Source of the DNA: an uncultured Acidobacteriota bacterium
Lineage (GTDB): Bacteria > Acidobacteriota > Terriglobia > Acidiferrales > UBA7541
NCBI GenBank assembly: GCA_963711875.1
Contig: CAVQFW010000006.1
Location: 227,040 to 291,039, forward strand
Length of the DNA stretch: 64,000 bases
Direction: 5' to 3'
Of the stretch, positions 3,578 through 47,234 are shown piece by piece. Made by a program: the position numbers and the translations under genes. Within the stretch, counting starts at the first letter, position 1; every line of letters starts with the position of its first letter. A model generated the notes under the pieces. That model searched no databases. It was not told the origin of the DNA and was given only the letters and a program-made list of their open reading frames with translations.

Positions 3578-3640
3578 GACAGCTTTCGTTACACAAAGAT
3601 ATCACGTCGTTGCATCGAGTTACGCGCCGGCGAGCAGAAT

Positions 3641-3667
3641 TGTGACGCCCATCACGCGAAAGCGTGA
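3641..3667 (+). promoter_or_regulatory. CRP/FNR-type box-like site TGTGA-N6-TCACG overlapping the perfect palindrome TCACGC-gaaa-GCGTGA
   Basis: TGTGA 3641-3645, 6-nt spacer, TCACG 3652-3656 (one mismatch to TGTGA-N6-TCACA). TCACGCgaaaGCGTGA spans 3652-3667. The site lies 56-82 nt upstream of the USP start codon. Confidence 0.3.
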
Positions 3668-3722
3668 CGTTGATTACCGCAAGAGAAGTCTCGCAAGTCT
3701 ATCCTGCAACCAGAGGTGGCCC

Positions 3723-4613: not shown

Positions 4614-4657
4614 TCAAAGGGCGGCGCACCACTTGGGCCAAATGGGAGGTGAAGCTT

Positions 4658-6586
4658 GTGGTTTCCACTCACGCGAGCCGCGCGGCTCAATATAGCGATG
4701 TGGCTCGAGAGCTTCGCCTCCCGTTTCTGTTCATAGCCAGTCCGAGACCGAACAACGTATGGTCCAGCCGGGAAACCTGGATCGCCGTCACCGCTCTCGC
4801 CGCTATCGGCATCCACTCGCTGTGTCGCTTCGTCCTGGCCGCGCCCGCCAACGTATCGGCTGCGCCTCTTTGGTTCGCGCTTGTGGTCGGCGGCGTGCCT
4901 TTAGTGTTCACTCTGGTCCGCAAGCTCGCGCGCGGAGAATTTGGTTCTGATCTTCTCGCGGGAATTTCGATCGTTACGGCGGTGATCCTCGGCGAGTACC
5001 TTGTTGCCGCTATCGTCGTGCTCATGTTGTCGGGCGGCGAGGCACTCGAAAAATTCGCGAGCCGGCGCGCCTCATTCGTCCTCGACGCCTTAGCCAGGCG
5101 CATGCCGAATCGTGCACACCGCAAATCCGGAAATCGCCTTGACGATATCTCACTTTCCGAAGTCGGCATTGGAGATTTGCTCGCAGTTCTCCCGCATGAA
5201 ATTTGTCCCGTCGATGGGGTCGTCATCGAAGGCCATGGGAAGATGAACGAGGCCTATCTCACCGGCGAGCCATTCGAAATCCTCAAGACTCCTGGCTCCG
5301 CCGTTCTGTCCGGCGCCATCAATGGCGATAGGGCTCTCTCGATCCGCGCCGAAAAGCTGCCGGTGGATTCCCGTTACGCCCGCATCATGCAGGTGATGCG
5401 CGAAACCGAACAGCAGCGTCCGCGCCTTCGCCGCCTCGCCGATACGCTCGGTGCCTGGTATACGCCGCTCGCCGTCGGAATCGCAATCCTCGCCGCGTTC
5501 TTGAGCGGACAGTCCGAGCGCTTTCTCGCTGTACTGGTAATCGCCACTCCATGTCCGTTGCTACTGGCCATTCCGGTTGCCATCATTGGCGCCATATCTC
5601 TGGCGGCGCGCCGCGGCATCGTCATTAAGAATCCGGCTGTGCTCGAGCAGATTGATAGTTGCCGCGCGCTAATCTTCGACAAGACCGGTACGCTCACCTA
5701 CGGCAAGCCGACGTTATCCGAGATCAAGTGCTCGGTGGCATTCCGTCCTAACGATGTCCTCGGCCTTGCTGCCAGCTTGGAGCGTTATTCGAAACACCCG
5801 CTGGCGGGCGCGATTATTGACGCCGCGCAAAAGGCCGGCCTTCCGTTCGAGGAGGCCTCGGAAATCAGCGAGCGGCCCGGCGAAGGATTGCGCGGACTCG
5901 TCGGCGGACGAGACGTGGCGCTCACCGGACGCAACAAAGTGACGGCCGGAGGTTGGAACTTGCCGCCTGTCGTCGAAGGCTTGGAGTGCCTCGTATTTGT
6001 AGATGGCGCCTTTGCTGCGGCTCTGCGATTTCACGATGCTCCGCGAAAGGATAGCCGCCTGTTTCTCGAGCATCTTGGTCCGCGCCATGCAGTTTGCAAG
6101 CTGATGCTCGTTTCCGGCGACCGCGAATCCGAAGTGCGCTATCTTGCCAGGGAAGTTGGAATCTCGGACCTGCACTTCAGCAAAAGCCCGGAAGAGAAAG
6201 TCGAAATTGTGCGGGCTGAAACGAAACAGCAGAAGACTCTCTTTCTCGGCGACGGAATTAATGACGCTCCCGCCATGCAAGCCGCCACTGTCGGCGTGGC
6301 CTTCGGACAAGCCAGCGACGTTGCGGCCGAAGCCGCGGACGCCGTAATTCTCCAACCCTCACTCGGCAAAGTGGATGAGCTTATTCACATTGGGCGGCGC
6401 ATGCGCTCGATTGCGCTGCAGAGTGCTATCGGCGGCATGGCGTTGAGCATCGTCGGCATCATCGCCGCCGCTTTCGGCCACTTACCGCCCATTGCTGGCG
6501 CAATTACACAGGAGATGATCGATCTCGCGGCGGTGCTCAATGCTTTACGAGTCGCGCTCCCAACCAGGAATCTCACGGACTTCTAA
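4658..6586 (+). CDS. Heavy-metal-type (P1B) P-type ATPase lacking an N-terminal metal-binding domain, with a TPCP motif in the transmembrane region
   Basis: Motifs TGEP, DKTGTLT and [10 protein letters not shown] are present, plus the TM motif [15 protein letters not shown] 4658 is preceded by GGGAGG (4644-4649) at 8-nt spacing. The ORF-track start at 4550 would overlap the USP gene. Confidence 0.85.
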
Positions 6587-14461: not shown

Positions 14462-17143
14462 CTAGAGCATCTGGCGGAGGACGTACTGCAGGATGCCTCC
14501 GTGCTGGTAGTAGGCGACTTCGAAAGGGGTGTCCACGCGGGCGATGGCGGTGAAGTGTTTCTCTTTACCGGCGGCGTCCCGTGCGCGAACTTTCATTTTC
14601 TTTCGAGGTTCGAAATTGTGCGCGAGCCCGTCAATCTCGAAAAGTTCGAGGCCCGTAAGGCCGAGGGTTTTGGGGGTTTCTCCGGGCAGAAATTCGAGCG
14701 GCAACACGCCCATGCCGACGAGGTTTGAGCGGTGGATGCGTTCGAAGCTTTCCGCGACGACGGCGCGCACGCCCAGCAGAATCGTTCCCTTGGCGGCCCA
14801 ATCGCGTGAGGAGCCTGAGCCATATTCTTTTCCCGCCAAGATGATGAGCGGCACTTTTTCGTCGCGGTATCGCATTGCCGCGTCGTAGATGCTCATCTTT
14901 TCGCCGCTGGGCTGGTGAATCGTCCAGCCGCCTTCGGTTCCGGGCGCGAGCAGATTCTTCAGGCGAATGTTCGCGAATGTCCCGCGCATCATCACTTCGT
15001 GATTGCCGCGGCGAGCGCCGTAAGAATTGAAATCCATGGGCTGGACGCCGTTCGCGATCAAATATTTTCCGGCCGGGGAGTCCGCGGGGATCGAGCCGGC
15101 CGGAGAGATATGATCGGTAGTGACGCTGTCGCCGAGAACAGCGAGCGCGCGAAGGCCGTGAAGGTCGCCGAGCGCGGAAGGCTTTTTCGGCATGGCTTCG
15201 AAGTACGGCGGATTCTTGATGTATGTGGACTTCGAATCCCAGGCGTAGAGATCGCCCTCGGGAATCGGAAGGGCGCGCCAATGTGCGTCGCCGGTAAAGA
15301 CGTCCGCGTATTCTTTGCGGAACATCTCGCTCGTCACCGACGAGCGCATCGTGTTTTCCACTTCCTGCGGCGTGGGCCAAATTTCGCGCAAGTAGACAGG
15401 TTTACCGGATTTGTCGTTGCCGAGCGGCTCGTTGACGATATCAATGTCCATGCTGCCCGCGAGAGCGTAGGCGACGACGAGCGGCGGTGAAGCGAGATAA
15501 TTCGCGCGGCAAAGAGCGTTGATGCGGCCTTCGAAGTTGCGATTGCCGCTGAGAACGGAGACGGCGACGAGATTATTGTCCTTGATCGCCGCGGCGATTG
15601 AGTCAGGAAGGGGTCCGCTATTGCCGATGCAGGTGGTGCAGCCGTAACCGACGAGATGGAAGCGCAACGTTTCGAGATAAGGCCAGAGGCCGGCTTTTTC
15701 GAGGTAGTCGGTGACGACTTTCGATCCTGGCGCGAAACTTGTCTTCACCCAGGGCTTGGACGTGAGCCCGCGCTCGACGGCCTTTTTTGCGAGAAGTCCA
15801 GCGCCGAGCATGAGCGAAGGGTTCGAAGTGTTCGTACAGCTTGTGATGGCGGCGATGACGACGGAGCCGTCGGCGAGCTCAAATCTGTCGCCGTTATTTC
15901 TCACGCTAACGTGCTTCGGCGCGGCGCCGGCGAGCGATTTTACGAACGATGTCTTTGCCTGCGTGAGCGGAACGCTGTCTTGCGGGCGCTTCGGTCCGGC
16001 CATCGTGGGGACGACCGAGGCGAGATCGAGCTCGAGGCGCTCGGAGAAGATCGGATCGGGCGTCTGATCGGTGCGGAAGAGGCCCTGTTCTTTCGTGTAA
16101 GCCTCGACGAGGCGGACCTGCTCTTCGCCGCGGCTCGTGAAGCGCAGATAAGCGAGAGTTTCGGAATCAACTGGGAAAAAGCCCATCGTCGCGCCGTATT
16201 CAGGCGCCATGTTGGCGATCGTGGCGCGATCGGGAAGCGTGAGGCTCGAAAGGCCGGTGCCGTAGAACTCAACGAATTTTCCGACGACGCCTTTTTTGCG
16301 CAGAATTGCGGTGACAGTAAGGACGAGGTCGGTGGCCGTGGCGCCTTCAGGCAAGCGGCCGTGCAGTTTGAAGCCGACGACGGCTGGAATCAGCATCGAG
16401 AGCGGCTGGCCGAGCATAGCGGCTTCGGCTTCGATGCCGCCCACTCCCCAGCCGAAAACGCCGAGGCCGTTGACCATCGTCGTGTGCGAATCGGTGCCGA
16501 CGAGCGTGTCGGGGAAAGCATACCAGTCGCCGTTTTCCTGTTTTTTGAAAACGACGCGCGCGAGATATTCGAGATTCACCTGGTGGCAGATGCCCGTGTC
16601 GGGCGGAACCACTTTGAAATTCTGAAAACCTTTCTGACCCCAGCGCAGAAATCCGTAGCGCTCGATATTGCGCTTCATTTCGAGATCAGCGTTGAATAGA
16701 AAAGCGTCTGCAGCGCCGAATTTGTCCACTTGCACGGAGTGGTCAATCACGAGTTCGGCGGGAAGCAGCGGATTAATTTTTTTCGGATCGCCGCCGAGGT
16801 GGCGCATCGCGTCACGCATCGCCGCAAGGTCGACAACCGCAGGTACGCCGGTGAAATCCTGGAGCAGCACACGCGCGGGCATGAAGGAAATCTCTTTTTC
16901 GGAGGCGCCGGCGGCACTGGTGGGATCCCAGGTAGCAAGGGCGCGAATATCATCCGCATGGACGAAGCGATCGTCTTCGTGGCGGAGTAGATTTTCGAGA
17001 AGCACTTTGAGCGAGAACGGCAGGCGAGACGATTTGCCCACGCCGGAGCGCTCGAGCGCGTCGAGGCGATAGATCTCGAAAGAGTCGCTGCCTACTTTGA
17101 GTGCGGCGCGGGTAGCGAAAGAATTTTTGTGCCCTGGGCTCAT
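14462..17143 (-). CDS. acnA: Aconitate hydratase A
   Basis: 893 aa. N-terminus [13 protein letters not shown]...[14 protein letters not shown], internal [13 protein letters not shown] and [14 protein letters not shown] (Fe-S ligand regions). Confidence 0.95.
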
Positions 17144-17417
17144 GCTTGGTTGAAGTCTCCTCTGTCGGTAACAGAATATTGTAACGCAGGCCCGGCGCGA
17201 AGCACTCGGGAATCGTGAATTGCCGTGAGTTTCGAATACGGAATGCCGACCAGGAGGTGAGCCGCTCGCAGCGGCTACCGTGCCGGGAGTTGGGGAAAGC
17301 GTGACATAATTTCATCATTGATTTGACGGGGGACATGGCGGGGAACGTGGCAAGGAACAAGGCGGTGAAGATGTTGTGGCGCGGGAGATAGCGAAGGCGC
17401 CTGAGACACGCGACACG

Positions 17418-18881
17418 ATGAACATATTGCTTATTTCCACTTACGAGTTAGGCCGGCAGCCCTTCGGGTTGGCGTCGCCGGCGGCTTGGCTCCGCTCAGG
17501 CGGGGCGGCGGTGACGTGTGTGGATTTGTCCCGCGAAATGCTGGACGAAGCATCTGTGCGCGCCGCGGAATTAATTGGGTTCTACGTGCCGATGCATACG
17601 GCGACGCGGCTGGCGGTGGCGCTCTTGCCCGCGATTCGAGCGCTGAACGCTCGGGCACATTTGTGCTTTTACGGTTTGTACGCGCCGGTGAATGAGACGT
17701 ATCTGCGAGCACTCGGCGTCGAGACAATTCTGGGCGGCGAGTTTGAGGAGGGACTGCGTTCGCTGGCGGAGCGGCTGCGCGCGAAAAATCCCGGCGCGAA
17801 AGGCGGAGCGGCGGCGAAGACGGAACAGCGGGAGCCGGTGATTTCACTCGAGCGGCAGAAATTTCTGACGCCCGATCGCAGCGGGATGGTCGGGCTCGAG
17901 AAATATGCGCGACTGGTTATGCCCGGGGGTGAGACGCGGACGGTTGGCTACACGGAAGCGAGCCGCGGGTGCAAGCATCTTTGCCGGCATTGTCCGATCG
18001 TTCCGGTTTATAAGGGCGTCTTTCGCATCGTGGATCGCGACGCCGTGCTCGCGGATATCCGGCAGCAGGTTCGAGCGGGAGCGCAACACATCACGTTCGG
18101 CGATCCGGATTTTTTCAACGGGGTGGGGCACGCGATTCCGCTCGTTGAATCGCTGCACCGCGAATTTCCGGAGCTGACGTACGACGCGACGATCAAGGTG
18201 GAGCATCTCTTGAAGCACAGGGATTGCGTCGCGAAGTTGCGCGCGACAGGCTGCTTGTTTGTGACGACCGCGGTTGAGAGCGTGGACGACGCCGTGCTTC
18301 AAAAGTTCGAAAAAAATCACACGCGGGCGGACTTTCTGCGAGTGGTGGAATTGTTTCGCGAAGCGGGCCTGACGCTTCAACCGACGTTTGTGCCGTTTAC
18401 TCCCTGGACCGCGCTCGAAGGATATTGCGAATTGCTCGAAGTGTTGCGGGAGCAGGAACTGGTCGAAAGTGTGGCGCCGATTCAGCTCGCGATTCGGTTG
18501 CTGATTCCGGCCGGGTCCCGGCTGCTCGAACTCGAAGAGCTCCGCCGCGGCGCCGAGCCGTTTGACGAAGCGGCGCTCGTGTATCCATGGAAGAACGCCG
18601 ATCCGCGAGTGGATCGTTTGTGCGACGAGGTGCAGGCGATCGTTCACTTGGGAGAAAAAGTGGGACGCGAGCGCGCGCGAATTTTTGAGCGGGTGGAGGA
18701 CGCGGCGTTTTCGGCGGCAGGCGGAGCAATCACGCGCAGCGCTTTGCCCGCACTTGTGGCGCGAGCCGCGATCCCGTATTTGAATGAGCCTTGGTATTGT
18801 TGAGCGGAACCTTCCGGGGACCAGTTGGTTCCCATCGTAGAGGCGAGAAAGAAGTTGCGGCAGGCGGACACCTTCGTTTAA
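17418..18881 (+). CDS. CUAEP-tail radical SAM protein, probable selenoprotein (TGA 18801-18803 read as Sec)
   Basis: Starts MNILLISTYELGRQPFG (ATG 17418) and carries the CX3CX2C motif SRGCKHLCRHCP. The C-terminus reads EPWY-C-TGA-A-E-P, and the frame stays open 25 codons past the TGA to TAA 18879-18881. Confidence 0.7.
18806..18832 (+). other. Candidate bacterial SECIS stem-loop
   Basis: GGAACC (18806-18811) pairs with GGTTCC (18827-18832). The 15-nt G-rich loop region starts 2 nt after the in-frame TGA. Confidence 0.4.
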
Positions 18882-18907
18882 TGCGATCGAAACCACAGTG
18901 AGCGCTG

Positions 18908-20257
18908 ATGAACGCAGATAAACCGGAAACGGGCGACCATCGAGGATCGAGGCGCGTGCTGATCCTGGCGAGCAAGCTGGGGTACCAGACGCGCGGATTC
19001 GCGGAGGCCGCGGAGAAATTGGGCGTGAGCGTGGTGTTTGGAACGGATCGGTGTCATCAACTGGAGAATCCGTGGGGCGACGATGCGCTGGCGCTACACT
19101 TCGAAAAACCGCGCGAGGCGGCGCGCGAAATCGTGGAATCGCTAGGCCGGAATTCAGCGGGAGACGATTCGTCGGCGAGAGAACCGGTGGCAGCCGTGAT
19201 TGCGCTCGGCGACCGGCCTACTCCGGCGGCGGCGTATGCGGCGCAGGATTTGGGCGTAGCCGGGAATTCGCCGGAAGCAGCGGAAATTTGCCGGAGCAAA
19301 TTGCGGCAGAGAGAAACGTTGCGCGCGGCCGGCATTCGCGTGCCGGATTTTTTCGCGTTTTCAGCCGGGGAAGATTTGAGCGGCGTGCTGCGGCGTGTGA
19401 AATTTCCGTGCGTGGTGAAGCCGCTCTCCCTTGCCGCCAGCCAAGGCGTGATTCGCGCGAACGATGCGGCAGAATTTGCGGGCGCGGTGAACCGAATTCG
19501 CATGCTGCTCGAATCGCCGGAAATTCAAGTGCTGCGCGAGCCGGGAACGGATCGTCTTTTGGTCGAGAGCTATGTTCCCGGGCGGGAAGTGGCCGTGGAG
19601 GGGCTGATCGATCTCGGACGGCTGCGCGTATTGGCAATTTTCGATAAGCCGGATGCGCTCGAAGGCCCGTATTTCGAGGAGACGATTTACGTCACGCCGT
19701 CGCGTTTGCCGGACGAGACGCAGGCAGCGATTCGGGAGTGCGCGGCGCGTGCGATCGCAGCGCTGGGATTGACCACCGGACCGGTGCACGCGGAATTTCG
19801 GGTGAATGAAGAAGGACCGTGGGTGCTGGAAGTGGCGCCGCGTCCAATCGGCGGCTTGTGTTCGCGGGCGCTGCGATTCGGCGTCGAGCGGATCTCGCTC
19901 GAAGAGTTGTTACTGCGTCATGCGCTGCGGCTCGAAGGGAGCGCGCTCGAGCGGGAAGATGCGGGTTCGGGCGTGATGATGATTCCAGTACCGCGCAGCG
20001 GAATTTTTGAGGGCGTAGAGGGGATGGAGGATGCCGAGAAAATCGCGAGCGTGACGGAAATTCGAATTACAGCGCGATTGCGGGATTACGTGGCGTCTTG
20101 GCCGGAGGGAGCAAGCTATTTGGGATTTATCTTTGCGCGGGCGGATTCTGCAGCGCGTGTGGAAGCTGCATTGCGCGAAGCGCACTCGAAATTGCGGTTT
20201 CGATTCTCGCCGCGATTGCCGGTGGAGCATCCCGTGACGCGGCAAATGGGAATCTAG
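18908..20257 (+). CDS. ATP-grasp domain protein
   Basis: 449 aa with an N-terminal pre-ATP-grasp Rossmann-like segment (VLILASKLGYQTRGF). Central region FPCVVKPLSLAASQGVIRAN...LLVESYVPGREVAVEG is typical of ATP-grasp ligases. Confidence 0.8.
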   Translation: MNADKPETGDHRGSRRVLILASKLGYQTRGFAEAAEKLGVSVVFGTDRCHQLENPWGDDALALHFEKPREAAREIVESLGRNSAGDDSSAREPVAAVIALGDRPTPAAAYAAQDLGVAGNSPEAAEICRSKLRQRETLRAAGIRVPDFFAFSAGEDLSGVLRRVKFPCVVKPLSLAASQGVIRANDAAEFAGAVNRIRMLLESPEIQVLREPGTDRLLVESYVPGREVAVEGLIDLGRLRVLAIFDKPDALEGPYFEETIYVTPSRLPDETQAAIRECAARAIAALGLTTGPVHAEFRVNEEGPWVLEVAPRPIGGLCSRALRFGVERISLEELLLRHALRLEGSALEREDAGSGVMMIPVPRSGIFEGVEGMEDAEKIASVTEIRITARLRDYVASWPEGASYLGFIFARADSAARVEAALREAHSKLRFRFSPRLPVEHPVTRQMGI

Positions 20258-20311
20258 GGGCTAGATAAAAGAGGCGGCTGGAGACCGGCGATAGGAAAAA
20301 CCGGGCCGCGC

Positions 20312-20653
20312 TCAGCCTTTGGCTTTTGGCGCGACGTAGCCTTCGGGGAGTTTGGCGCCTTCGCCGAAGAAAAACTGCTCGAGTTGTTCTTCCATGATTT
20401 TTTGGGAGTTGGGATCGAGAGGATTCAGGCGGTACTCGTTCATGATCATCTTGGAATGCTCGAGCCAGAGTTTCCATGCGTCTTTTGAGACATTTTCGTA
20501 AACGCGCTTGCCGATTTCACCCTTCCAGGGAACCCGATCGAGCCCGGGGAGCTCGCGTCCGAATTTCACGCATTTGACCATACGGGCGGTTTGACCTGCG
20601 GGCTGCGAAGGAACGGCCGGGGGCGTGTTGTCTGCACATTTTTCGTCGGCCAT
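20312..20653 (-). CDS. yggX: Fe(II)-trafficking / oxidative-damage protection protein, YggX family
   Basis: [53 protein letters not shown] matches YggX. The start is ambiguous: ATG 20653 (MADEK...) or ATG 20581 (MVKC...). Confidence 0.8.
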
Positions 20654-20675
20654 GAATCCCTCCCGAACCTTGATG

Positions 20676-20706
20676 TGAATGATGCATTCCCAAGATACTT
20701 CATTCA
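20676..20706. promoter_or_regulatory. Inverted repeats in the yggX/zwf divergent promoter region
   Basis: TGAATGA (20676-20682) pairs with TCATTCA (20700-20706). A nested palindrome GAATG-atg-CATTC spans 20677-20689. Confidence 0.3.
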
Positions 20707-20854
20707 CTCCGGGAATTCCAGTTCGCGGCCGATGGAAGCGAGATGCGAACATGGAGCATCCGATGCGAATGGGATTGCCCTTGCGGTATCGGCTCCATTT
20801 TGAGAGAAAGATAGACTCGCATCGCGACGCTGGAAGGACTACCGGAGACGACCG

Positions 20855-22387
20855 ATGAATACCCCCGCGACGAACACAGTAGAAGCGCCCCAGATGGATG
20901 CCTATTACTGCGAGGTTCCGAACGATCCTTGTACGATCGTGATGTTCGGTGCATCAGGCGACCTGGCGCGGCGGAAACTTCTGCCCGCACTGTACGATTT
21001 GGCGGTGCACGCGTGCCTCGCGCCTCGGTTTCGCTTGCTCGGATTTGCGCGCACGGAAATGAGCGACGACGATTTTCGAAGCCGGGCGAGCGAATTCTTG
21101 CCGAAAGCCGGAGTCGGCGATGCCAACCTCGAAGAATTTGTGAAGCACTTGAGTTATTTCAGCGGCGATTATGACGATCCGGCTGCCTACCAGCGACTCG
21201 CGCAGCGGCTGACAGAAATCGATCGCGACGCGAATTTGCACGGGAACCGGCTCTTCTATTTGGCGACTCCGCCCGATGTCTACTTGAAGATCATCGAGCA
21301 GATCGGAAAAGCGGGCCTCGCGAAGCCGATGAGCGACAAATCGTGGACCCGCGTGATTATCGAGAAGCCGTTTGGGCACGACAAGGCGTCGGCATGCGAT
21401 TTGAATGCGAAGGTGCTGAACGTTTTCAACGAGTCGCAGGTGTACCGGATCGATCATTACCTCGGCAAAGAAACGGTGCAGAACATGTTGGTGTTCCGGT
21501 TCGGCAACGGAATTTTTGAGCCGCTATGGAATCGGAACTATATCGATCACGTGCAGATTACGGCGGCGGAATCGCTGGGTGTGGAACGCCGCGGCGGATT
21601 TTACGAGAATACCGGTGCGCTGCGGGACATGATTCAGAGCCATGTCCTGCAATTGACGTCGCTCGTGGCGATGGAAGCGCCGGCAACGTTTGACGCAACG
21701 GCGGTGCGCAACGAAAAGATCAAAGTGCTGCAGTCGATTCGACCGTTTACGGCGGAATCGATTTGGAAATCAGTCGTGCGTGGACAATATGGGCCGGGCA
21801 CCGTAGGCGGAAAATCGGTAGCCGGGTACCGGCAGGAGCCGGGCGTCAAACCGGATTCTGCGACGGAGACTTTCGTCGCCCTGAAGTTGCACGTCGATAA
21901 CTGGCGATGGAGCGGCGTGCCGTTCTATTTGCGAACGGGGAAGCGGCTGGCGCGGCCGGGCACGGAAGTAGCGATCGGATTCAAGAAGGCGCCGCACATG
22001 GTGTTTCAGGGCGAGAGCGTAGATGCCAACTCGCTCGTGCTGAATATTCAACCGGACGAAGGGATTTCTCTTTCGTTCGGAGCAAAGGCGCCGGGCGGAC
22101 ACATGCAGATACGTCCGGTGACGATGGATTTCCGGTACAAGCAGGCGTTTGGAGGCGGATCGCGCGACGCGTACGCAACATTGATTAATGATTGCATACG
22201 GGGCGATGCGACGCTGTTTGACCGCGCCGACAGCGTGGAAGCCGCATGGGCGCTGGTGGATCCGATTCTCGAAACGTGGCGAACCGGCGCTCCGCCGCCG
22301 TTTCCGAATTATCCCGCCGGAAGCCAGGGGCCGAAGGCTTCGGACGATTTGACCGTGACGGATGGACGCCGCTGGCGTCAGCTCTAG
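20855..22387 (+). CDS. zwf: Glucose-6-phosphate 1-dehydrogenase
   Basis: [16 protein letters not shown] (NADP-binding) and RIDHYLGKE motifs; 510 aa. Confidence 0.95.
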
Positions 22388-22445
22388 AGCCGGCGTCCGC
22401 ACTCGTGAACAATCGATCGTAGAAATTTGATTCGGAGGATTCTCG

Positions 22446-23405
22446 ATGCTTCTCGGCGGCGACCTGGGTGGAACAAAAACCAATCTCGGGTTGTTCGACG
22501 CGACCGGAGGAAAACTCAAGCGGGTCGCGCACAAACGATATGCAACGGGGGCGTTCAGCGGGCTCGAAGCTGTGGTGACGGATTTTCTCGCCGAAACGGG
22601 CGGGAAGGTGACCGGGGCTTCATTTGGGATCGCCGGGCCTGTGGTTGAAAACCGGGTGCACGCGACGAATTTTCCTTGGATTGTGGATGGCGCGGAGATC
22701 GCGCGACATTTAGCACTGAGCCGGGTGCGCTTGTTGAACGATTTGGAAGCGGCAGCCTTCGGACTCAGCGTGATGGAGCCGGCCGACCTCGAGGTGATCC
22801 ATCCCGGCGTGCCCGCTCCGGAAGCGAATCGCGTGGTGATCGCAGCGGGGACGGGACTCGGCGAAGCGATTCTTTTCTGGGACGGCAAGCAACACTTGCC
22901 GATGGCGACGGAAGGCGGCCATGCGGATTTCGCGCCGCACACGGATCAGCAGGCTGACTTGTGGAAGTTCTTGAAGAAGCGCGGAGAATTCGTGAGCGCG
23001 GAGAATATCTTGTCGGGTGGCGGATTCAAGCGCGTGCACGAATTTCTAAATCCTTCCATGCGGCATGATTTCGATGAGCCGGGGGTGGATCCCGCACCTG
23101 GAATCACGCAGCGCGGCCTTTGCGGGGAGTGTCCGGTGTGCGAGGCGACGCTCGACCTGTGGGTCGAGATTTACGGGTCGGAAGCGGGGAATCTGGCGGT
23201 GCGCGCAGTGGCGCGAGGCGGGATTTTTGTGACCGGCGGAGTTGCGCTAAAACTATTGCCGAAGATGACGGATGGGCGATTTCTCGCAGCAGTGAGAGAC
23301 AAAGAAAAAATGGGGGAGTTTTTGGAGCAGATTCCCGTCGTGATTGTGTTGAATGAGGAATGCCCTCTGATGGGCGCGGCGTATGTGGCTTGGAAGGGTT
23401 TGTAG
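22446..23405 (+). CDS. glk: Glucokinase
   Basis: MLLGGDLGGTKTNLGLFD N-terminus, 319 aa, immediately downstream of zwf. Confidence 0.85.
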   Translation: MLLGGDLGGTKTNLGLFDATGGKLKRVAHKRYATGAFSGLEAVVTDFLAETGGKVTGASFGIAGPVVENRVHATNFPWIVDGAEIARHLALSRVRLLNDLEAAAFGLSVMEPADLEVIHPGVPAPEANRVVIAAGTGLGEAILFWDGKQHLPMATEGGHADFAPHTDQQADLWKFLKKRGEFVSAENILSGGGFKRVHEFLNPSMRHDFDEPGVDPAPGITQRGLCGECPVCEATLDLWVEIYGSEAGNLAVRAVARGGIFVTGGVALKLLPKMTDGRFLAAVRDKEKMGEFLEQIPVVIVLNEECPLMGAAYVAWKGL

Positions 23406-23409
23406 GGCG

Positions 23410-23430
23410 CCCGAAATACTTCGGGTTTTT
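23410..23430 (+). terminator. Rho-independent terminator after glk
   Basis: CCCGAA (23410-23415), loop atac, TTCGGG (23420-23425), then TTTTT (23426-23430). Confidence 0.65.
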
Positions 23431-23536
23431 GAGTTTGCCTGCCAGTGAGTTCTTCGGTCTATCCCCAGTGAAATTCGAAAAGCAATAATCGGCGGGCGAG
23501 GAGAGCGCCTCTCGCATGTGCCGAGCGCGCGTTGGA

Positions 23537-24163
23537 TCACGCCGTTTGGCGAGACTTACTTCGTTTGTAACGGTAGAGGATGTACAGCGAGATGGCTACG
23601 GAAACGACGATGAACGTGATGAGAATCGGTTTGGAGTGGCTGGTGACGAGAGTGATGATCTGCCGGCCGTAGTATGCGCCCAGGCAGGCGAGGATCGTGA
23701 ACCGAATGGCGCGACCGATCGTGAGCGCAATGAGAAACTTGTTGCGCGAATATTGCATGGCGCCGGCGGCGATTAGAAATGGAACCATGGGAGATGGCGG
23801 CGGAAGAAGCGCGGGAACCATGACGGCGCCGAAGCCCCACTTCTCAAATGCTTTTGTGACTTGGTTTATTCGGCGGCGGGAAATTCTGTGCTCCATGGAA
23901 GCCTTACCCTGCCGGCGCGCGATGTGGTAGGTGATGTAACCGCCCATGACGGAGCCGATCGTCGCCATCAAAGCGAAGTATGGCCAGAGTGTCCGTTGCT
24001 TGGCGGCAAGAATGATCGTGAGCGCATCCATGCTGCCGGGAACGGGAATCACGGAGCCATCGATCACGCCGAGGATGATCAAGCCCGGGCCGCCCAGGTG
24101 GCGAACCCAGTGGAAGAATCCTGTGGCGGGTTTGGCGAGCTCGATGGCGTGATGGATCAGCAT
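23537..24163 (-). CDS. YqaA/DedA-superfamily membrane protein
   Basis: 208 aa with GGPGLIILGVIDGSVIPVPGSMDALTIILA, typical of the YqaA-like family. Confidence 0.65.
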   Translation of the reverse strand: MLIHHAIELAKPATGFFHWVRHLGGPGLIILGVIDGSVIPVPGSMDALTIILAAKQRTLWPYFALMATIGSVMGGYITYHIARRQGKASMEHRISRRRINQVTKAFEKWGFGAVMVPALLPPPSPMVPFLIAAGAMQYSRNKFLIALTIGRAIRFTILACLGAYYGRQIITLVTSHSKPILITFIVVSVAISLYILYRYKRSKSRQTA

Positions 24164-24393
24164 GCAATTTTCCGGAGTGCGTCGATATGCTTGTTTGCCG
24201 CTCTGCTGTTAGATTCGCTTGGTTGCAGGCATGATGGATGTGAATAAATCATAGCTCGCAACGCTCTAGTTCGCTATCGGCAATTCCCGCGAATTTCGCT
24301 ACCGAATCGCTGTAAAGCTTCTCTCAAAACTCCACCACGTTAGAAGACGCCTTTGCGCGGCGTGCGGTTTCACGATGATTCCGCGCGTCCGTC

Positions 24394-25815
24394 GTGAGTG
24401 CGGGTGATACTATGCCGCCGAATTCCGCGGAGGTTTTTTTGGTTGCAACAACGACACGCGAATCGGGACCGGCCGCTCCCGCGCAGGGGTTAAAGCGCGA
24501 CCTGGGACTCGGCTCGGCGACCGCGGCAGTGGCTGGCGAAGTGATCGCGGTCGGAATTTTTCTTACGCCGGCAGGGATGGCGAAAGCGCTCGGATCGCCG
24601 ATGTGGATCTTGATCGTTTGGGTGGCTGTGGGCGCGATGACTCTGAGCGGAGCGTTGTGCTACGGAGAACTCGCGGGGCGATTCCCGAGGGCGGGCGGGA
24701 CATATATATTTTTGTGGGAGTGCTTCGGCGCGCGGATCGCGTTTCTCTACGGATGGATGAGCTTGCTGGTGATGGAGCCGGGGCTGACGGCGGCGTTCGG
24801 AACCGGGCTCGCGGGATATGCAGCCTACATTTTTCATTGGTCGCCGGCGCAAATAAAAACCGCGGCGATCGCGGCGATTTGGTCACTTTGTGTTTTGAAC
24901 ATGGTGAGCACGAGGATGAGCGCGGGCTTTTTGCGCTGGTTGACGTGGCTGAAATTTGCAGTGCTCGGGACGCTCGTGATTTGGGCGATCGCGTTCCGGC
25001 TCGGCGCGTGGTCGAATTTTGTGCCGTTTGTTGCGCAGCGGCAAGGGGCTCTGCCACTGGCGCCGGCGCTTGGCATTGCAATTGTGTCGGCATTTTTTTC
25101 GTTCGGCGGGTGGTGGGACGCTACCAAAATCGCCGGCGAGGTCCGCGATCCCACTAAGACGCTGCCGCGCGCATTGGCGCTCGGCGTTGTGTCGGTGACT
25201 GCCGTATATATTCTGGTGAGCGGAATATTCTGGTATCTGATTCCGTTCGAGAAGGTCACGTCAGACGGAGCATTCGTCGCAATGGCCGGCGCAGTGTTAT
25301 TCGGGCCGGCAGGCGGGATCGTGTTTTCGGCGATTGTTGTGATGTGTGTGCTGGGAAGCTTGGCGGCGGTGATCATGTCGTCACCTCGCGTCTACTATGC
25401 GATGGCGAAGGACGGCTTGTTCATCGCCGCCGTGGCGGAGACGCATCCGCGATTCGGCACCCCGGCGCGCGCGGTTGCGATCCAGGGAATTCTGGCAACG
25501 GTGCTGGTGGTGGCGGGGAGTTTTCAGCAAATCGTCTCGTATTTTATTTTTGTCGCGGTGGCATTTATCGGGCTCGCGGTAGCAGGTTTATTCGTTCTGA
25601 GGCGGCGGCAACAGCCGCTCGAGGGAGCGATGGCGACGCCAGGGTATCCGGTGACTCCGTTCGGGTTCTTGCTCTTGACTGTCGTCATGCTCGCATTGCT
25701 CGTCGTCCACAGCCCGCGCGAGGCGTTGCTGGGCAGTGCGGTAGTGCTCGCGGGATTGCCTGTTTTCGAGTGGATGAAAAGAACTTCTGTGCGCAACGGT
25801 GCACGAATCGGCTAA
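24394..25815 (+). CDS. APC-superfamily amino acid permease
   Basis: About 12 TM helices with GSATAAVAGEVIAVGIFLTPAG near the N-terminus. GTG 24394 or ATG 24412 start. Confidence 0.85.
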   Translation: MSAGDTMPPNSAEVFLVATTTRESGPAAPAQGLKRDLGLGSATAAVAGEVIAVGIFLTPAGMAKALGSPMWILIVWVAVGAMTLSGALCYGELAGRFPRAGGTYIFLWECFGARIAFLYGWMSLLVMEPGLTAAFGTGLAGYAAYIFHWSPAQIKTAAIAAIWSLCVLNMVSTRMSAGFLRWLTWLKFAVLGTLVIWAIAFRLGAWSNFVPFVAQRQGALPLAPALGIAIVSAFFSFGGWWDATKIAGEVRDPTKTLPRALALGVVSVTAVYILVSGIFWYLIPFEKVTSDGAFVAMAGAVLFGPAGGIVFSAIVVMCVLGSLAAVIMSSPRVYYAMAKDGLFIAAVAETHPRFGTPARAVAIQGILATVLVVAGSFQQIVSYFIFVAVAFIGLAVAGLFVLRRRQQPLEGAMATPGYPVTPFGFLLLTVVMLALLVVHSPREALLGSAVVLAGLPVFEWMKRTSVRNGARIG

Positions 25816-25990
25816 ACGTCGCGTACCTTCCTGTAGAAACGCGCGCGATTCCCTGTAGCAGCCAAATTATGATTGACTTGATTCAGCCAACGGTGCCAAA
25901 AATTGTTCGGCCACTTGTTTGCCAGGCTCGCACACGAGGCCCGCACACGTTGTGCACCTCGTACACTTCGTCCCACAGGATTGACAGCCC

Positions 25991-26683
25991 ATGACACTAA
26001 AAGAATATCGCGAGAAGCGGCGGTTCGCAGTGACGCCCGAGCCGGCGGGAAAAACCGCAGCAGAAAATCGCAAAGATGCGCCGCGCATCTTCGTAGTGCA
26101 AAAGCACCGCGCATCGCGGCTGCACTACGATTTCAGACTGGAGTGGAACGGAACTCTGCTCTCGTGGGCGGTGCCGAAGGGCCCGTCGCCCGATCCTTCC
26201 GTGAAGCGCCTTGCGATGCAGGTGGAGGATCATCCCATCGACTACGCGAATTTTGAAGGCGTGATACCGGAGGGCGAATACGGCGGCGGAACGGTAATGG
26301 TTTGGGACAAAGGAACGTGGGAGCCGGAGCAGCCCGATCCTGAAGCGGCGCTCAAGAAGGGCGACCTGAAGTTCACGCTCCACGGCAAGAAATTGCATGG
26401 CTCTTGGGTCCTGGTGCGCACGTACGGTTTCGGAGGGAGCAGCAAGCCTTCGTGGCTGCTGATTAAACACCGCGATAAGTACGCGTCTTCGAAAGACTTG
26501 ACGGTAGCGGAACCGAAGTCGGCGCTCAGCAATCGGCTTCTCGCGGATATTGCGCGCGATGGTGGAGGCGACGTGGAACTCGCCGCCACCGGCGATCCCG
26601 CCGGCAAATCCGCACCCAAGAAAACTTCCAAGCGAGCGAAGCCGGCGCCCGCGGCGAAAAGTCCGCGGAAGCGCAGAGCGTAG
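25991..26683 (+). CDS. Stand-alone LigD 3'-phosphoesterase (PE) domain protein with Lys/Ala/Pro-rich basic tail
   Basis: YREKRRFAVTPEPAG...FVVQKHRASRLHYDFRLEWNGTLLSWAVPKGPS is the LigD-PE signature. The tail is GKSAPKKTSKRAKPAPAAKSPRKRRA. Confidence 0.85.
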   Translation: MTLKEYREKRRFAVTPEPAGKTAAENRKDAPRIFVVQKHRASRLHYDFRLEWNGTLLSWAVPKGPSPDPSVKRLAMQVEDHPIDYANFEGVIPEGEYGGGTVMVWDKGTWEPEQPDPEAALKKGDLKFTLHGKKLHGSWVLVRTYGFGGSSKPSWLLIKHRDKYASSKDLTVAEPKSALSNRLLADIARDGGGDVELAATGDPAGKSAPKKTSKRAKPAPAAKSPRKRRA

Positions 26684-26724
26684 ATTCCCGAGTAAGCGAC
26701 GATCCCAAGGAGCCATTCCACCGC

Positions 26725-27648
26725 GTGAGCGACCGAATTCCATTTCGCGTTCAACCCATGCTCGCGACGCTCGTCCGCGCGCCGTTCCACAAGCCCGGCT
26801 GGGTCTACGAGGAAAAATACGATGGCATTCGAATCCTCGCTTACAAAGAAGGCAGCCGCGTGCGGTTGGTCTCAAGAAACGAAATCGATCGAACCAGCGG
26901 ATTTCCCGGAATTGCCGATGCAGTCCGCGCGCTCAAGCCCGCCACCCTTTTGCTAGATGGCGAAGTCGTAGTGTTCGATCGGAAAAAAGTGTCGCGATTC
27001 CAATTGCTGCAGAAGGGAAAGGGCCACGCTGCGTACGCCGTTTTCGATTGCCTCTACCGCGCGGGAAAAGATTTGCGCCGGGAGCCGCTTTCGATTCGGC
27101 GCGTCGAAATGGAGAAATCGCTGGGTACGAATAGCACGCTGATTCCTTCGCGTCGCCTCGCAAAGAATGGTCTCGAAGCTTTCGAGGAAGCGAAGCGGCG
27201 AGGTTTCGAGGGCCTCGTCGCAAAGGATCTCGCCTCGCCTTATGTCGAAAAGCGCTCGAATGCCTGGCTGAAGGTCAAGGTCCATCAGGAAGATGAATTC
27301 GTGATCGGAGGAATCACGAAACCCGAAGGCGCGCGAAAATATTTTGGTGCGCTGCTGCTGGGGGCGTATCAGGCCGGACAATTGCACTACGTCGGGAAAG
27401 TGGGCACCGGGTTCGACGAAAGCGCGCTTGCATCGCTCTATAAAACATTTCGATCGCTCGTGTCCCAACGGTCGCGGTTCGTGGAACTCCTGCGCGAGAA
27501 AGGCGTCACATATCTCGAGCCAAAACTGGTGGCGCAAATCTCGTTTCAGGAGTGGACGGCAGAAATGAAACTGCGCCAGCCCGTTTTTCTGGGATTGCGC
27601 GATGACAAGAAGCCCAAGGAAGTTCAGCTGCCGGAGCCGCAAAAATGA
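26725..27648 (+). CDS. ligD: ATP-dependent DNA ligase (LigD ligase domain as a separate gene)
   Basis: PMLATLV...GWVYEEKYDGIRILAY (KxDG adenylation motif I) and LLLDGEVVVFD. 307 aa. Confidence 0.9.
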   Translation: MSDRIPFRVQPMLATLVRAPFHKPGWVYEEKYDGIRILAYKEGSRVRLVSRNEIDRTSGFPGIADAVRALKPATLLLDGEVVVFDRKKVSRFQLLQKGKGHAAYAVFDCLYRAGKDLRREPLSIRRVEMEKSLGTNSTLIPSRRLAKNGLEAFEEAKRRGFEGLVAKDLASPYVEKRSNAWLKVKVHQEDEFVIGGITKPEGARKYFGALLLGAYQAGQLHYVGKVGTGFDESALASLYKTFRSLVSQRSRFVELLREKGVTYLEPKLVAQISFQEWTAEMKLRQPVFLGLRDDKKPKEVQLPEPQK

Positions 27649-28562
27649 AGAAGGCCCAAGCGAAATCAGCAAGCGCGAAGAAGTTTCCGGTGAACATTTC
27701 GAATCCGGACAAAGTTTTCTGGCCGGCCGAAGGGTACACGAAAAGCGATCTGGCGGAATTTTACCTCGCGATCTTCCCGAAGCTCGCGCCTTACGTAAAA
27801 GATCGTATCCTGACGCTCGAGCGCTGCCCGGACGGAATGGCCGGCGAATGTTTCTATCAAAAAGAGTTGCCCAAAGGCATGCCGGCCGGTACGCCGACGG
27901 AACGAATCAAGAACGAAGGAGGGAGCCGCCCCTTCACAAACTATGTAGTTGGCGGCGCGCTCGAGACTCAACTCGCGCTCGTCAATCTCGGCTGCATTGC
28001 GGTTCACGCGATGGGTGGCCGCGCGAGCTCACCGCGCCAGCCCGACTGGGTGTGCTTCGATCTCGATCCCGAATCGGGGAAATTTGCGGACGCAGCGAAG
28101 GCAGGGCTCTACGTCAGGGAAGCACTTGACGCGCTGAAACTCGACTCATTTCCGAAGACCTCGGGAAGTCGCGGCATGCACGTCTTCGTGCCGATTCGCG
28201 TGGGGCCGGATGTGAGCGACGTGCTGACGTTCGCGCAGGAGTTCGTTGCGCGAGTAGCCGCAGCTCATCCGAAGGAGTTAACCGTCGAGCATTCCATTGC
28301 GGCTCGAAAAGGACGCGTCTACCTGGATCCGTTTCGAAATGGCTTTGGCCAGACGGTCGTGACGCCTTATTCGGTGCGACGGAAGCCGAAAGCGCCGGTC
28401 TCGACGCCGCTCGCATGGTCCGAGGCAAAGCCGGGGCTTGTGCCCTCCGATTTCAACATCGGGAATTTTGCAGCACGTGCCAGACGCGCTGATCCGTGGA
28501 AGGATTTCTTTCGCAGCCGGCAGTCGCTCGAACCGGCTATCCAGCGGTTAAAAAAACTCTGA
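27645..28562 (+). CDS. LigD polymerase/primase domain protein (separate gene)
   Basis: ISNPDKVFWPAEGYTKSDLAEFY...LTLERCPDG...KTSGSRGMHVFVP. ATGA stop/start overlap with the ligase gene. Confidence 0.9.
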   Translation: MKKAQAKSASAKKFPVNISNPDKVFWPAEGYTKSDLAEFYLAIFPKLAPYVKDRILTLERCPDGMAGECFYQKELPKGMPAGTPTERIKNEGGSRPFTNYVVGGALETQLALVNLGCIAVHAMGGRASSPRQPDWVCFDLDPESGKFADAAKAGLYVREALDALKLDSFPKTSGSRGMHVFVPIRVGPDVSDVLTFAQEFVARVAAAHPKELTVEHSIAARKGRVYLDPFRNGFGQTVVTPYSVRRKPKAPVSTPLAWSEAKPGLVPSDFNIGNFAARARRADPWKDFFRSRQSLEPAIQRLKKL

Positions 28563-28633
28563 CTCAAGCGAGACGATTGTTTCCACGCGACCGTTGCGCG
28601 GGAGCGTTCCTGAACAGCCGCGCCTCGCGCACC

Positions 28634-29173
28634 TCAGTCCGCCCCAGCTTTCTTCGACTCCAGTAGGGAAGAAATCTCGTTGGAATCTGGATTCCCACTC
28701 GCGGCGGCCGAATTTTCGATTTTGAAAATGCTCCGCCTGGCTACAAGATCCGATGCCCACAAGAAGATATCGAAAAGCCGGGCGCGATCGAGATTGTCGA
28801 AGCCCCGGACAGGTCGCACCAATTCTCCGGCCTGCGCCACGCACTGCTGCAGAAAGCGATCGATGGCGACCGACGTGACAACGTCCGAATCCTGCAGCGG
28901 ATTCGCATTGCACCGTTCGAGCTTCTCGTAACAGTGCGTGATGAAATGGCTGATGCAAAAAAAACGCAAGGCGAGCAGTCCGGCCGCCGCATTTACGCAA
29001 TTCGGCGTGTCGCATCGAATCCACTTCTTCGACGATGGATAGTTTTCTTCCCCTGATTTCACAGGTTCCACGGAATCGTCTGTCATGGCCCTCATACCCC
29101 TGTATTTTTCGGCTACGAATAGCTCGCGCGTTGGTTTTTCTGTGCGTTGCCGTTCAGCGATTTGCATTGTCAT
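28634..29173 (-). CDS. Hypothetical Cys/His-rich protein (179 aa from ATG 29173)
   Basis: Cluster WIRCDTPNC...FFCISHFITHCYEKLERC. The ATG overlaps the upstream stop as TGATG (29171-29175). Confidence 0.4.
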   Translation of the reverse strand: MTMQIAERQRTEKPTRELFVAEKYRGMRAMTDDSVEPVKSGEENYPSSKKWIRCDTPNCVNAAAGLLALRFFCISHFITHCYEKLERCNANPLQDSDVVTSVAIDRFLQQCVAQAGELVRPVRGFDNLDRARLFDIFLWASDLVARRSIFKIENSAAASGNPDSNEISSLLESKKAGAD

Positions 29174-29622
29174 CAGCAAACCGGCGCCGTCAATGCCGGC
29201 AGCAGCGAATCCTGCAAGTTCGGAAGTGCAGCTTCGTATGTGTGAACCCTCGTGCACACGTCAATCAACGGGGCGATCATCTTCAGAACTGCCGCCGAGC
29301 TCTCCCAGCGGTTTCCGGATGCGTCCTTCTCCGATCTCCACAGACTCATCACCAGAATTAGCCGCGGTTCCTTATGGGAGCTCAGCACGATCGCCCCCGC
29401 GAAGCCTCGTTGCTTTTTCAAATGCTCCATCAGTTCGCCCTGGGCGCAACTTCGCAAATCGCCGATTTTGCCGGGCTGAGCGATGAATTCCACCGAGCGC
29501 GCATTCAACGTTCGAAATCCCAGATTTCCGTTTGGCGTCAAAGCGGTTCTCGCTTCCCAGAGGTTAGAATTGCAAACCACGTCTTCGATTCTTGCGGCTT
29601 CGGTATCTATCGCTCTGCTCAT
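29173..29622 (-). CDS. Hypothetical protein with ABM/Dabb-like (ferredoxin-like) C-terminal domain
   Basis: ATG 29622 is preceded by GGGAGA at 9-nt spacing. FAGAIVLSSHKEPRLILVMSLWRSEKDA resembles antibiotic-biosynthesis-monooxygenase-fold proteins. Confidence 0.45.
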   Translation of the reverse strand: MSRAIDTEAARIEDVVCNSNLWEARTALTPNGNLGFRTLNARSVEFIAQPGKIGDLRSCAQGELMEHLKKQRGFAGAIVLSSHKEPRLILVMSLWRSEKDASGNRWESSAAVLKMIAPLIDVCTRVHTYEAALPNLQDSLLPALTAPVC

Positions 29623-29665
29623 TTCGCTCGCTCTCCCTTTGGGTCCTCGTCGCGATGGCGGGGAA

Positions 29666-29708
29666 GCGCATCCCGGTTCGTTCGGGGTAGGGACGCCCCG
29701 GGATGCGC
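29666..29708. promoter_or_regulatory. 11-bp perfect inverted repeat (stem-loop or operator)
   Basis: GCGCATCCCGG (29666-29676) pairs with CCGGGATGCGC (29698-29708) across a 21-nt spacer. It lies 44-86 nt upstream of the ABM-like gene start. Confidence 0.4.
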
Positions 29709-29955
29709 CTGGTGCTGGGGAAGTTCGAGCGTTGCCATCTTTCAGACCGAGATCCTGAAATTGCTTCACCAAAAAATTGACCATTACTCGGAAGTAGTGC
29801 GCTCAAAGCGCGAATCGTTTCAATTCGGGAATACTTTTTTCGTAGCTACCCGCGGACGCGAAGCGAATCGGCTCGGCGCTCCAGTCCTAGGACGGCTCAG
29901 CCTCATTGCGCTTGATTTCATAGGGGGATATACTTCGTGCCCTCATGAGGGGCAT

Positions 29956-30549
29956 GTGGAATTCTTCTCGTTTGACGAGGCCTATCTTAAACGGCTCCGG
30001 GACAGGGACTTCCCGACGGAGCAGCACTTTGTCACCTATTTCAGCCGCCTCCTGCTGATCAAGCTGCGGTCACGCCTACGTTCCTCCCAAGCCGTAGAAG
30101 ACATACGCCAGGAGACGTTTGTGCGCGTGCTCAAGGCCGTTCAGGCCCCGGGGACGATTCGCTCCGCAGAGGGCCTCGGTTCGTTTGTTAACTCCATATG
30201 TAACAATGTTTTACAGGAGTATTACCGCTCGTCCGCGCGCTCCGTCTCAAGTGACGATACTCCGCTTGACCCTCCCGATGAGAGCATCGATCTCGACGGA
30301 ATGCTGGTGGCAAAGCAGACCCAGGAGCAGGTAAAGCTAACGCTTTCAAAGCTTTCCGAGAAAGAGCGGCGTTTGCTCCGCGCAATGTTCTTCGAGGATA
30401 AAGATAAGGACGAGATTTGCCAGGACTTCGGAGTTGACCGGGATTATTTGCGGGTTCTGCTGCACCGGGCCAAGCAGAGTTTTCGCACCCTGTACGAGCA
30501 AGCCGGGCCGCCCGGACCGGTCGGCCTGGGGCATTCTGGCCACGGATGA
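29956..30549 (+). CDS. ECF-type RNA polymerase sigma-70 family factor
   Basis: Region 2 (IRQETFVRVLKAV...FVNSICNNVLQEYYR) and region 4 (LSEKERRLLRAMFFEDKDKDEICQDFGVDRDYLRVLLHRAKQSF). GTG 29956 is the first plausible start that does not overlap the minus-strand genes. Confidence 0.8.
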   Translation: MEFFSFDEAYLKRLRDRDFPTEQHFVTYFSRLLLIKLRSRLRSSQAVEDIRQETFVRVLKAVQAPGTIRSAEGLGSFVNSICNNVLQEYYRSSARSVSSDDTPLDPPDESIDLDGMLVAKQTQEQVKLTLSKLSEKERRLLRAMFFEDKDKDEICQDFGVDRDYLRVLLHRAKQSFRTLYEQAGPPGPVGLGHSGHG

Positions 30550-30582
30550 AACGATTTACGCTCCCAACTCACTACTGGGAGG

Positions 30583-47064: not shown

Positions 47065-47234
47065 ACCAGATTCTCCTGAGGGAATTGCGAGGCCAGGGTA
47101 AGTCCAAGCCCTGCGAGCCGGATTCGCGCACTCCCGATAACGGCTGAAGGACAACGGCCACGCTTTCAAATTCGGAAGGAGAAGGCGGGCCCGAAATCTT
47201 TTCTAATCTTTTCTGACCTTTTACGATTGAGGCG

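Follow-up and report, generated by a model that had tools for sequence, protein, structure and literature searches.

The DNA analysed here, a 64,000-nucleotide stretch of contig CAVQFW010000006.1 from an uncultured Acidobacteriota bacterium (hereafter the window), carries on its forward strand a radical S-adenosylmethionine (SAM) gene which probably continues through an in-frame TGA codon into a short conserved tail. The mechanical list of open reading frames (ORFs) closes this gene at 18803, with the TGA (18801-18803, codon 462) in the sequence tat tgt TGA gcg gaa cct (18795-18812), and reading through it gives ...NEPWYC-TGA-AEPSGDQLVPIVEARKKLRQADTFV-TAA. A preliminary description of the same DNA had placed the TGA within Y-C-TGA-A-E-P, followed the frame for 25 codons to the TAA at 18879-18881, counted 26 nt from there to the next ATG and remarked that the ORF track misses the tail. 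On re-reading of the sequence the motif stands at those positions, the 25-codon read-through is exactly reproduced, the next ATG lies at 18908, and the ORF list does end short of the tail. At the other end, the gene starts with the ATG at 17418 (MNILLISTYELGRQPFG...), which lines up with the starts of homologues; the GTG at 17376, given as the start in the ORF list, was rejected.

In a profile search with U entered as C, the full-length protein matched NCBIfam family NF040546, named "CUAEP/CCAEP-tail radical SAM (seleno)protein", with 636.6 bits (E 2.3e-191) against a curated cut-off of 500 bits, which bears out the family assignment made in the preliminary description. The alignment places residues 3-470 on profile positions 1-466 of 468 and passes through the C-U-A-E-P motif; the C-terminal C-[U/C]-A-E-P signature is present as WYC-TGA-AEP at 18792-18812. 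In Pfam, the generic Radical_SAM domain (PF04055) alone is recognised in the protein. The CX3CX2C motif, whose cysteines are ligands of the [4Fe-4S] cluster, is invariant in all three family alignments in which it was followed (A1, A3, and A4), and the Cys beside the U/C position is the sole universally conserved Cys outside this motif in the CUAEP family. Both the family and its status as a selenoprotein family are on record already, and the window gene is a member in which nothing defining differs.

We conclude that the TGA at 18801-18803 is very probably a selenocysteine (Sec) codon, and put the probability of this reading, which is built on comparative sequence evidence, at roughly 0.93. 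The product would be a 487-aa NF040546 enzyme in which Cys461 and Sec462 form a vicinal pair, 25 residues before the C-terminus. The features of the locus are collected in Table 1.

Table 1 Features of the radical SAM locus and its downstream neighbours (positions in the window)
Feature	Position	Strand	Details and basis
Predicted full-length CUAEP-tail radical SAM selenoprotein gene	17418..18881	+	487 aa; Sec at residue 462; TAA 18879-18881
Radical SAM CX3CX2C motif, C185-K-H-L-C189-R-H-C192	17970..17993	+	Sequence reading; PF04055
TGT-TGA, Cys461-Sec462 dyad, UGA predicted to be recoded	18798..18803	+	TGA/Cys codon alternation in relatives
Spacer between UGA and stem, 12 nt, encodes A-E-P-S	18804..18815	+	Variation in third codon positions only
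5' arm GGAACC of the hairpin of the preliminary description, partner 18827-18832	18806..18811	+	Complementary here; not a conserved pairing
Putative selenocysteine insertion sequence (SECIS) hairpin: 5' arm GGGGACC 18816-18822, loop AGUU 18823-18826, 3' arm GGUUCCC 18827-18833	18816..18833	+	Fold and covariation
Rest of the tail codons (IVEARKKLRQADTFV) and predicted true stop TAA 18879-18881	18834..18881	+	Translation, homologue alignment, codon entropies
ATP-grasp L-amino-acid-ligase-like gene	18908..20257	+	PF13535 and PF18603; PDB 3VOT
yggX-like gene, Fe(2+)-trafficking / oxidative-damage protection	20312..20590	-	NF003817, 124 bits; PF04362

TGA and cysteine codons alternate at a single column

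As the preliminary description had anticipated, relatives carry either TGA or a cysteine codon at the column in question. We read the codon after W[YF]C in the DNA of 80 GTDB species representatives, nearly all labelled Acidiferrales or Acidobacteriota and assembled from metagenomes, a tally that leaves out the window itself and its near-identical twin (L001). It is TGA in 72, TGC in 6, and TGT in 2, and the frame after the column is open into the conserved tail in all 80 loci. A second set of 75 metagenomic loci, obtained from a metagenome scan seeded with a distant clade and 38-44% identical to the query of that scan, gave a closely similar picture (TGA 66, TGC 6, TGT 3). Together this makes 138 TGA and 17 TGC/TGT, with neither TAA nor TAG at the column in any of the 155 loci. 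The restriction to TGA and Cys codons in 155 independent relatives is therefore more than chance. An invariant TGT before the UGA was at one point entertained as a context signal and was dropped, as it is lineage-specific, the distant clade having mostly TGC.

Past the column, homologues share an AEP(T/S)..Q tail; proteins that end at ...WYC with no AEP tail behind the stop, which the preliminary description had named as evidence that would speak against recoding, are thus not what the family shows. The same continuation is found in protein databases. While 104 of the 120 closest database proteins end ...EPWYC, 13 run on as CCAEPTGDQ(L/F)...RQ(A/S)D(A/T)FV, colinear with the read-through tail of the window, and the ending ...RQxDxFV is common to the window protein and the Cys-form homologues. 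Among 150 representatives of 50%-identity clusters, 38 end at the first Cys and 39 have CCAEP.

TGA could also be read through without selenocysteine, by a near-cognate Trp or Cys tRNA, by leaky termination stimulated by the hairpin described below, or as a reassigned codon. A stable hairpin 3' of a stop can indeed stimulate read-through in some systems. This explanation does not account for a codon that alternates with Cys codons only, which is the signature of a Sec/Cys pair, nor for a hairpin with SelB-type spacing and a G-U loop. Reassignment is contradicted by the use of TGA elsewhere: among the 47 gene ends in the window it is the most frequent ordinary stop (22), and the true terminal stops of the relatives' genes are mixed, with TGA again in front (TGA 61, TAA 11, TAG 9). 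Since TGA closes ordinary genes of the window and, at their real termini, genes of this family as well, the code is the standard one and the TGA at 18801-18803 is the sole exception. We regard read-through without selenocysteine as highly improbable.

The tail evolves as coding sequence

Codon-wise entropies in 67 distinct Sec-form sequences point to translation of the region behind the TGA. In tail codons 1-4 (A-E-P-T/S) variation among relatives is confined to third positions, with entropies of 0.03, 0.00, and 1.29 bits at the first, second, and third codon position, respectively. Tail codons 11-25 give 0.82, 0.55, and 1.46 bits, similar to the 20 codons before the TGA (0.58, 0.34, and 1.16). 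This codon-periodic conservation past the TGA shows that the tail is translated and is under purifying selection in the frame of the upstream gene. Within the hairpin, third positions are frozen and the codons CAG and TTG are invariant in the 67 sequences, which reveals an additional constraint at the level of RNA.

These data bear on a further alternative, namely that the TGA is a true stop of a 461-aa protein ending ...WYC, with the downstream conservation left as a relic, for example of a recent loss of the Sec machinery. Gene callers and GenBank annotations do end the protein at the TGA, and the window shows no Sec machinery. A relic would be expected to decay, however, and TAA or TAG would then appear at the column, which happens in 0 of 155 loci. 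Instead, the tail is under protein-level purifying selection across 67 distinct sequences, compensatory changes maintain the hairpin, and a strain 99% identical to the window keeps both the tail and the hairpin intact. A true stop is, accordingly, a very unlikely explanation, and we continue with the TGA as a probable Sec codon.

A conserved hairpin lies within the coding sequence 12 nt after the TGA

Directly after the A-E-P-S spacer, the sequence can fold into a hairpin of seven pairs with an AGUU loop (Table 1), which at the same time encodes G-D-Q-L-V-P. Counting the U of UGA as +1, the G and U of the loop stand at +24 and +25. The minimum-energy fold picks exactly this structure (-12.3 kcal/mol; z -2.56 for the 24-mer), and among the 47 gene ends in the window the TGA at 18801-18803 has the strongest downstream hairpin. 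In an alignment of 66 distinct Sec-form sequences the stem is 90.7% paired with 19 doubly changed cells, a score reached by 0 of 500 shuffles; the stem pair 27-40 alone occurs as GC in 49 sequences, AU in 10, CG in 6, and GU in 1, and is never unpaired. Of the covarying bases, one is the third base of a Gly codon and the other the first base of a Pro/Ser/Ala codon, which means that an amino-acid change goes together with a synonymous one.

The preliminary description had seen a different hairpin, GGAACC/GGTTCC at 18806-18811 and 18827-18832, starting 2 nt after the TGA. These arms are complementary, and a conserved hairpin does exist downstream of the TGA, but the conserved stem is the inner one at 18816-18833, 12 nt rather than 2 nt away. 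The outer pairing, which competes with the supported hairpin for the same 3' arm, was rejected: in the same 66 sequences it is 76.8% paired, has no double-sided changes, and does not rise above shuffles. Conservation of a hairpin, on which the earlier proposal had been made to depend, thus holds for the covarying inner stem and fails for the pairing originally drawn.

The inner hairpin extends across both clades. In 128 distinct sequences several pair types occur at a given stem level (for instance CG 108 and UA 17, or GC 36, AU 51, and GU 7), and the loop is a tetraloop in 86 sequences and five bases long in the other 42. In 110 of 122 Sec forms the loop starts at +23, with the consensus AGUU(N). 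Fold energies average -11.1 kcal/mol in the 122 Sec forms as against -4.2 kcal/mol in 18 Cys forms (Mann-Whitney p 1.3e-10); the hairpin belongs to the TGA forms and is lost in their Cys-form relatives.

A G+C-rich stem-loop close to a called gene end could also be a terminator, an attenuator, or another regulatory RNA between genes, in which case the 25-codon frame would be accidental or an independent small ORF. The hairpin is not followed by a T-run, however, and no terminator-like site is called there; the codon periodicity runs on unbroken from the upstream gene, and Cys-form homologues encode the same tail within one uninterrupted protein. The probability that we would give to a regulatory element of this kind is close to nil.

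The hairpin is better compared with the E. coli fdhF SECIS, for which the sequence used here was confirmed in 5419 genomes. Both lie within the coding sequence directly after the UGA, and both have G-U at tetraloop positions 2-3 (GGUC at +22 to +25 in fdhF, AGUU at +23 to +26 in the window). G23 and U24 of fdhF are the SelB contacts. In the folds computed here, the three pairs below the loop of fdhF begin at +19, whereas the 7-pair stem of the window begins at +16. The window hairpin further differs from fdhF in having neither the bulged U nor the extended lower helix, in a loop shifted by one base, and, in part of the CUAEP family, in a loop of five bases (AGUUG/C/A).

By analogy with E. coli, recoding would be directed by this SECIS within the coding sequence, with its 12-nt spacer, 7-bp stem, and A-G-U-U loop. 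SelB-GTP, loaded with Sec-tRNA(Sec), would recognise the loop by its G-U and deliver Sec to the UGA, after which the ribosome would melt the hairpin and decode it as G-D-Q-L-V-P.

Observations against selenocysteine insertion, and other candidates in the window

Several results weigh against this reading. Over a wider region of 66 nt the fold energy is ordinary (z -0.82), and the bulged U of the fdhF type is absent from the hairpin. There was no Rfam match: none at gathering thresholds in the window, and no SECIS family at E ≤10 in 18760-18920. Neither selA, selB, selD, nor tRNA-Sec was found in the 64-kb window (30 window ORFs scanned), as is expected at this length; the window holds no tRNA gene of any kind, and no tRNA-Sec was found in the loci scanned for it (L001-L081). 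Acidobacteriota as a phylum do include selenocysteine users (PMC12013277, Table 2).

Two other ORFs of the window were considered as selenoprotein candidates and rejected. In both, the in-frame extension past the TGA (251 codons for 29374-31305 on the forward strand, 224 codons for 46339-47169 on the reverse strand) is the next gene in the same frame, and the hairpin is weak (-8.7 kcal/mol) or absent in energetic terms (0.0 kcal/mol), respectively.

Annotation, distribution, and earlier literature

Public annotations shorten the gene. About 87% of the closest database relatives (104 of 120) end at the TGA, among them GenBank records that already bear the family name; the public records of proteins P0002, P0028, P0056, and P0074 are without Sec and tail. 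Structural or biochemical work on the shortened form would miss what is likely to be an active-site tail.

The CUAEP family is abundant in soil Acidobacteriota, mostly of the Acidiferrales group. An ENA metagenome contig (ERZ27253551 k141_184590, 40.5 kb; the twin L001 mentioned above) matches positions 15913-28803 of the window without gaps at 99.0% identity. Over the gene, identity to the nearest GTDB species representatives is only ~79.5%, and the species of the window is therefore not among the species representatives recovered in the scan.

The family has been listed as an uncharacterised selenoprotein with a rare CU motif (Haft, bioRxiv 10.1101/2022.07.06.499078), and the searchable literature beyond this preprint holds no mention of it. 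Within the same literature we found no description of the SECIS structure, the scale of mis-annotation, the distribution, the relationship to ArsL and the neighbourhood of ligase, YggX, and Nfu, or the integrase insertions at the hairpin. With the SECIS defined, Sec/Cys pairs at hand, and the ligase, YggX, and Nfu as conserved partners, there are concrete handles on the function of the family.

Conserved neighbours of the radical SAM gene

The gene that follows the radical SAM gene after 26 nt, with no terminator-like site in the gap between the two, is probably co-transcribed with it. Its product matches L-amino acid ligase BL00235 (PDB 3VOT) with E 2e-42 and BacD with 2.6e-13, and has the same ATP-grasp_4 and LAL_C2 domains as these two enzymes. 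We know of no description of BL00235- or BacD-like L-amino acid ligases paired with a radical SAM selenoprotein. The ligase adjoins the radical SAM gene in 75 of the 80 Acidiferrales loci; it is met again in 16 distant loci, where its side and strand vary.

The most consistent neighbour of the CUAEP family across clades is yggX. In Acidiferrales, including the window, it is convergent and located after the ligase, while in 13 distant loci it is immediately upstream and abuts the radical SAM start. A gene for an Nfu/NifU scaffold lies near the radical SAM gene in 21 distant loci, and downstream of it in the 16 of these with clustered ORFs. At least one of ligase, YggX, and Nfu is present in 21 of 27 well-flanked distant loci; associations seen inside Acidiferrales may partly reflect shared ancestry. 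A UbiE-like methyltransferase and an ArsB-like permease were rejected as conserved partners, being found in one locus and in five related loci, respectively.

In the distant locus L123:2428-9525 the gene set comprises an ArsB/CitMHS-type permease, a universal stress protein, a formyltransferase-like gene, yggX (overlapping the radical SAM start), the radical SAM gene, a UbiE-type methyltransferase, and the L-amino-acid ligase. This layout recalls the arsinothricin set of permease, methyltransferase, and radical SAM gene. The formyltransferase-like gene recurs in 13 loci.

Comparison with ArsL and a tentative function

The second-best family match of the window protein is ArsL (NF040542; 276.2 bits, E 5e-82, residues 3-405). 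The bodies of the two proteins are homologous, both carry the CX3CX2C motif, and each has two adjacent chalcogen residues (CC in ArsL, CU in the window) in a short tail at the C-terminus, so that in the window protein selenocysteine takes the place of one cysteine. The match stops short of the tail, at residue 405, leaving the two tails unaligned. ArsL cleaves SAM to methylthioadenosine and a 3-amino-3-carboxypropyl radical, and its C-terminal RCCLKC cysteines bind the arsenite substrate and not a second cluster (10.1101/2024.02.01.577332; 10.64898/2026.04.29.721666). The partners found here, in turn, are an L-amino-acid ligase, YggX, and Nfu. ArsL is the nearest relative of the CUAEP family with a characterised activity and, to our knowledge, the only CX3CX2C radical SAM enzyme known to make the 3-amino-3-carboxypropyl radical.

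A second parallel is the Gly-Cys-Sec-Gly arm of thioredoxin reductase, which likewise has adjacent Cys and Sec near a flexible C-terminus. Two such residues can join in a selenenylsulfide and pass on electrons, or can bind soft metals. Fold and cofactor of thioredoxin reductase are unrelated to those of the radical SAM enzyme, and the dyad of the window protein lies 25 residues from the end, not next to last.

From these comparisons we derive a working model, which we offer tentatively as one possible, though on balance unlikely, account. The enzyme may transfer a group in the manner of ArsL, or carry out related radical chemistry, with the Cys-Sec pair holding the substrate: by analogy with ArsL, the dyad would present a soft substrate (a metalloid, a metal, or a chalcogen), or else serve as a redox arm. 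The resulting amino acid might be handed to the adjacent L-amino-acid ligase, while YggX and Nfu would serve the oxygen-sensitive iron-sulfur cluster. More doubtful still is the further step in which the ligase would build the product of the enzyme into a dipeptide, so that the two genes together, with support from YggX and Nfu, would form a pathway for an organo-element amino acid. If this were true, widespread soil Acidobacteriota would carry an undescribed pathway of this kind.

A number of observations count against this function. The ArsL score falls below the cut-off of that family (276.2 against 450 bits), and the window tail (WYCUAEPSGDQL...) has no RCCLKC (CCxxC) and no third Cys. Many distant loci are without the ligase. 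No arsM or other ars genes are conserved near CUAEP-family loci, so arsenic is not indicated as the substrate. An AlphaFold2 model of a Cys-form homologue, made from a shallow alignment, was too poor to place the tail (mean predicted local distance difference test score 57.9, tail <50), and a PDB sequence search returned one marginal radical SAM match (9ccb, E 0.005).

Integrase insertions at the hairpin

At two loci from two species (L010:6189-7574 and L014:7408-8838), homology to all other loci ends exactly after the 3' arm of the SECIS (...GGGGACCAGTTGGTTCCC). The DNA past the hairpin is lower in G+C content (0.50-0.53 vs 0.58-0.60), and the first gene in it encodes a tyrosine recombinase (PF00589); between the two loci these integrases are 38% identical (E 2e-58). 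The radical SAM gene acquires a different short tail in each case (LKHPLESGI or THLDGNKSFI), and no ligase is present in the 6 kb that follow. It looks as though related integrative elements insert here, with the 3' end of the selenoprotein gene serving as their attachment site.

The wider surroundings in the window

The radical SAM and ligase pair is flanked by genes for aconitase A (14462-17143, reverse strand) on one side and, on the other, by yggX (20312-20590, reverse strand), glucose-6-phosphate dehydrogenase (20855-22387, forward strand), and glucokinase (22446-23405, forward strand). In E. coli, acnA, yggX, and zwf are members of the superoxide (SoxRS) response. The neighbourhood in the window may be an oxidative-stress cluster.

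Approximately 11-13 kb upstream of the radical SAM gene are a gene for a heavy-metal P-type ATPase (4550-6586, forward strand; TIGR01525, 487 bits) and a UspE-like gene (3456-4613, forward strand), the pairing of which with the CUAEP family is not conserved. Far downstream, between 37828 and 45994 on the reverse strand, four genes resemble subunits of acetophenone carboxylase or caprolactamase (ApcE-, ApcD-, ApcC-, and ApcA-like), all scoring below equivalog cut-offs, and are adjoined by an acyl-CoA synthetase gene at 35842-37758.

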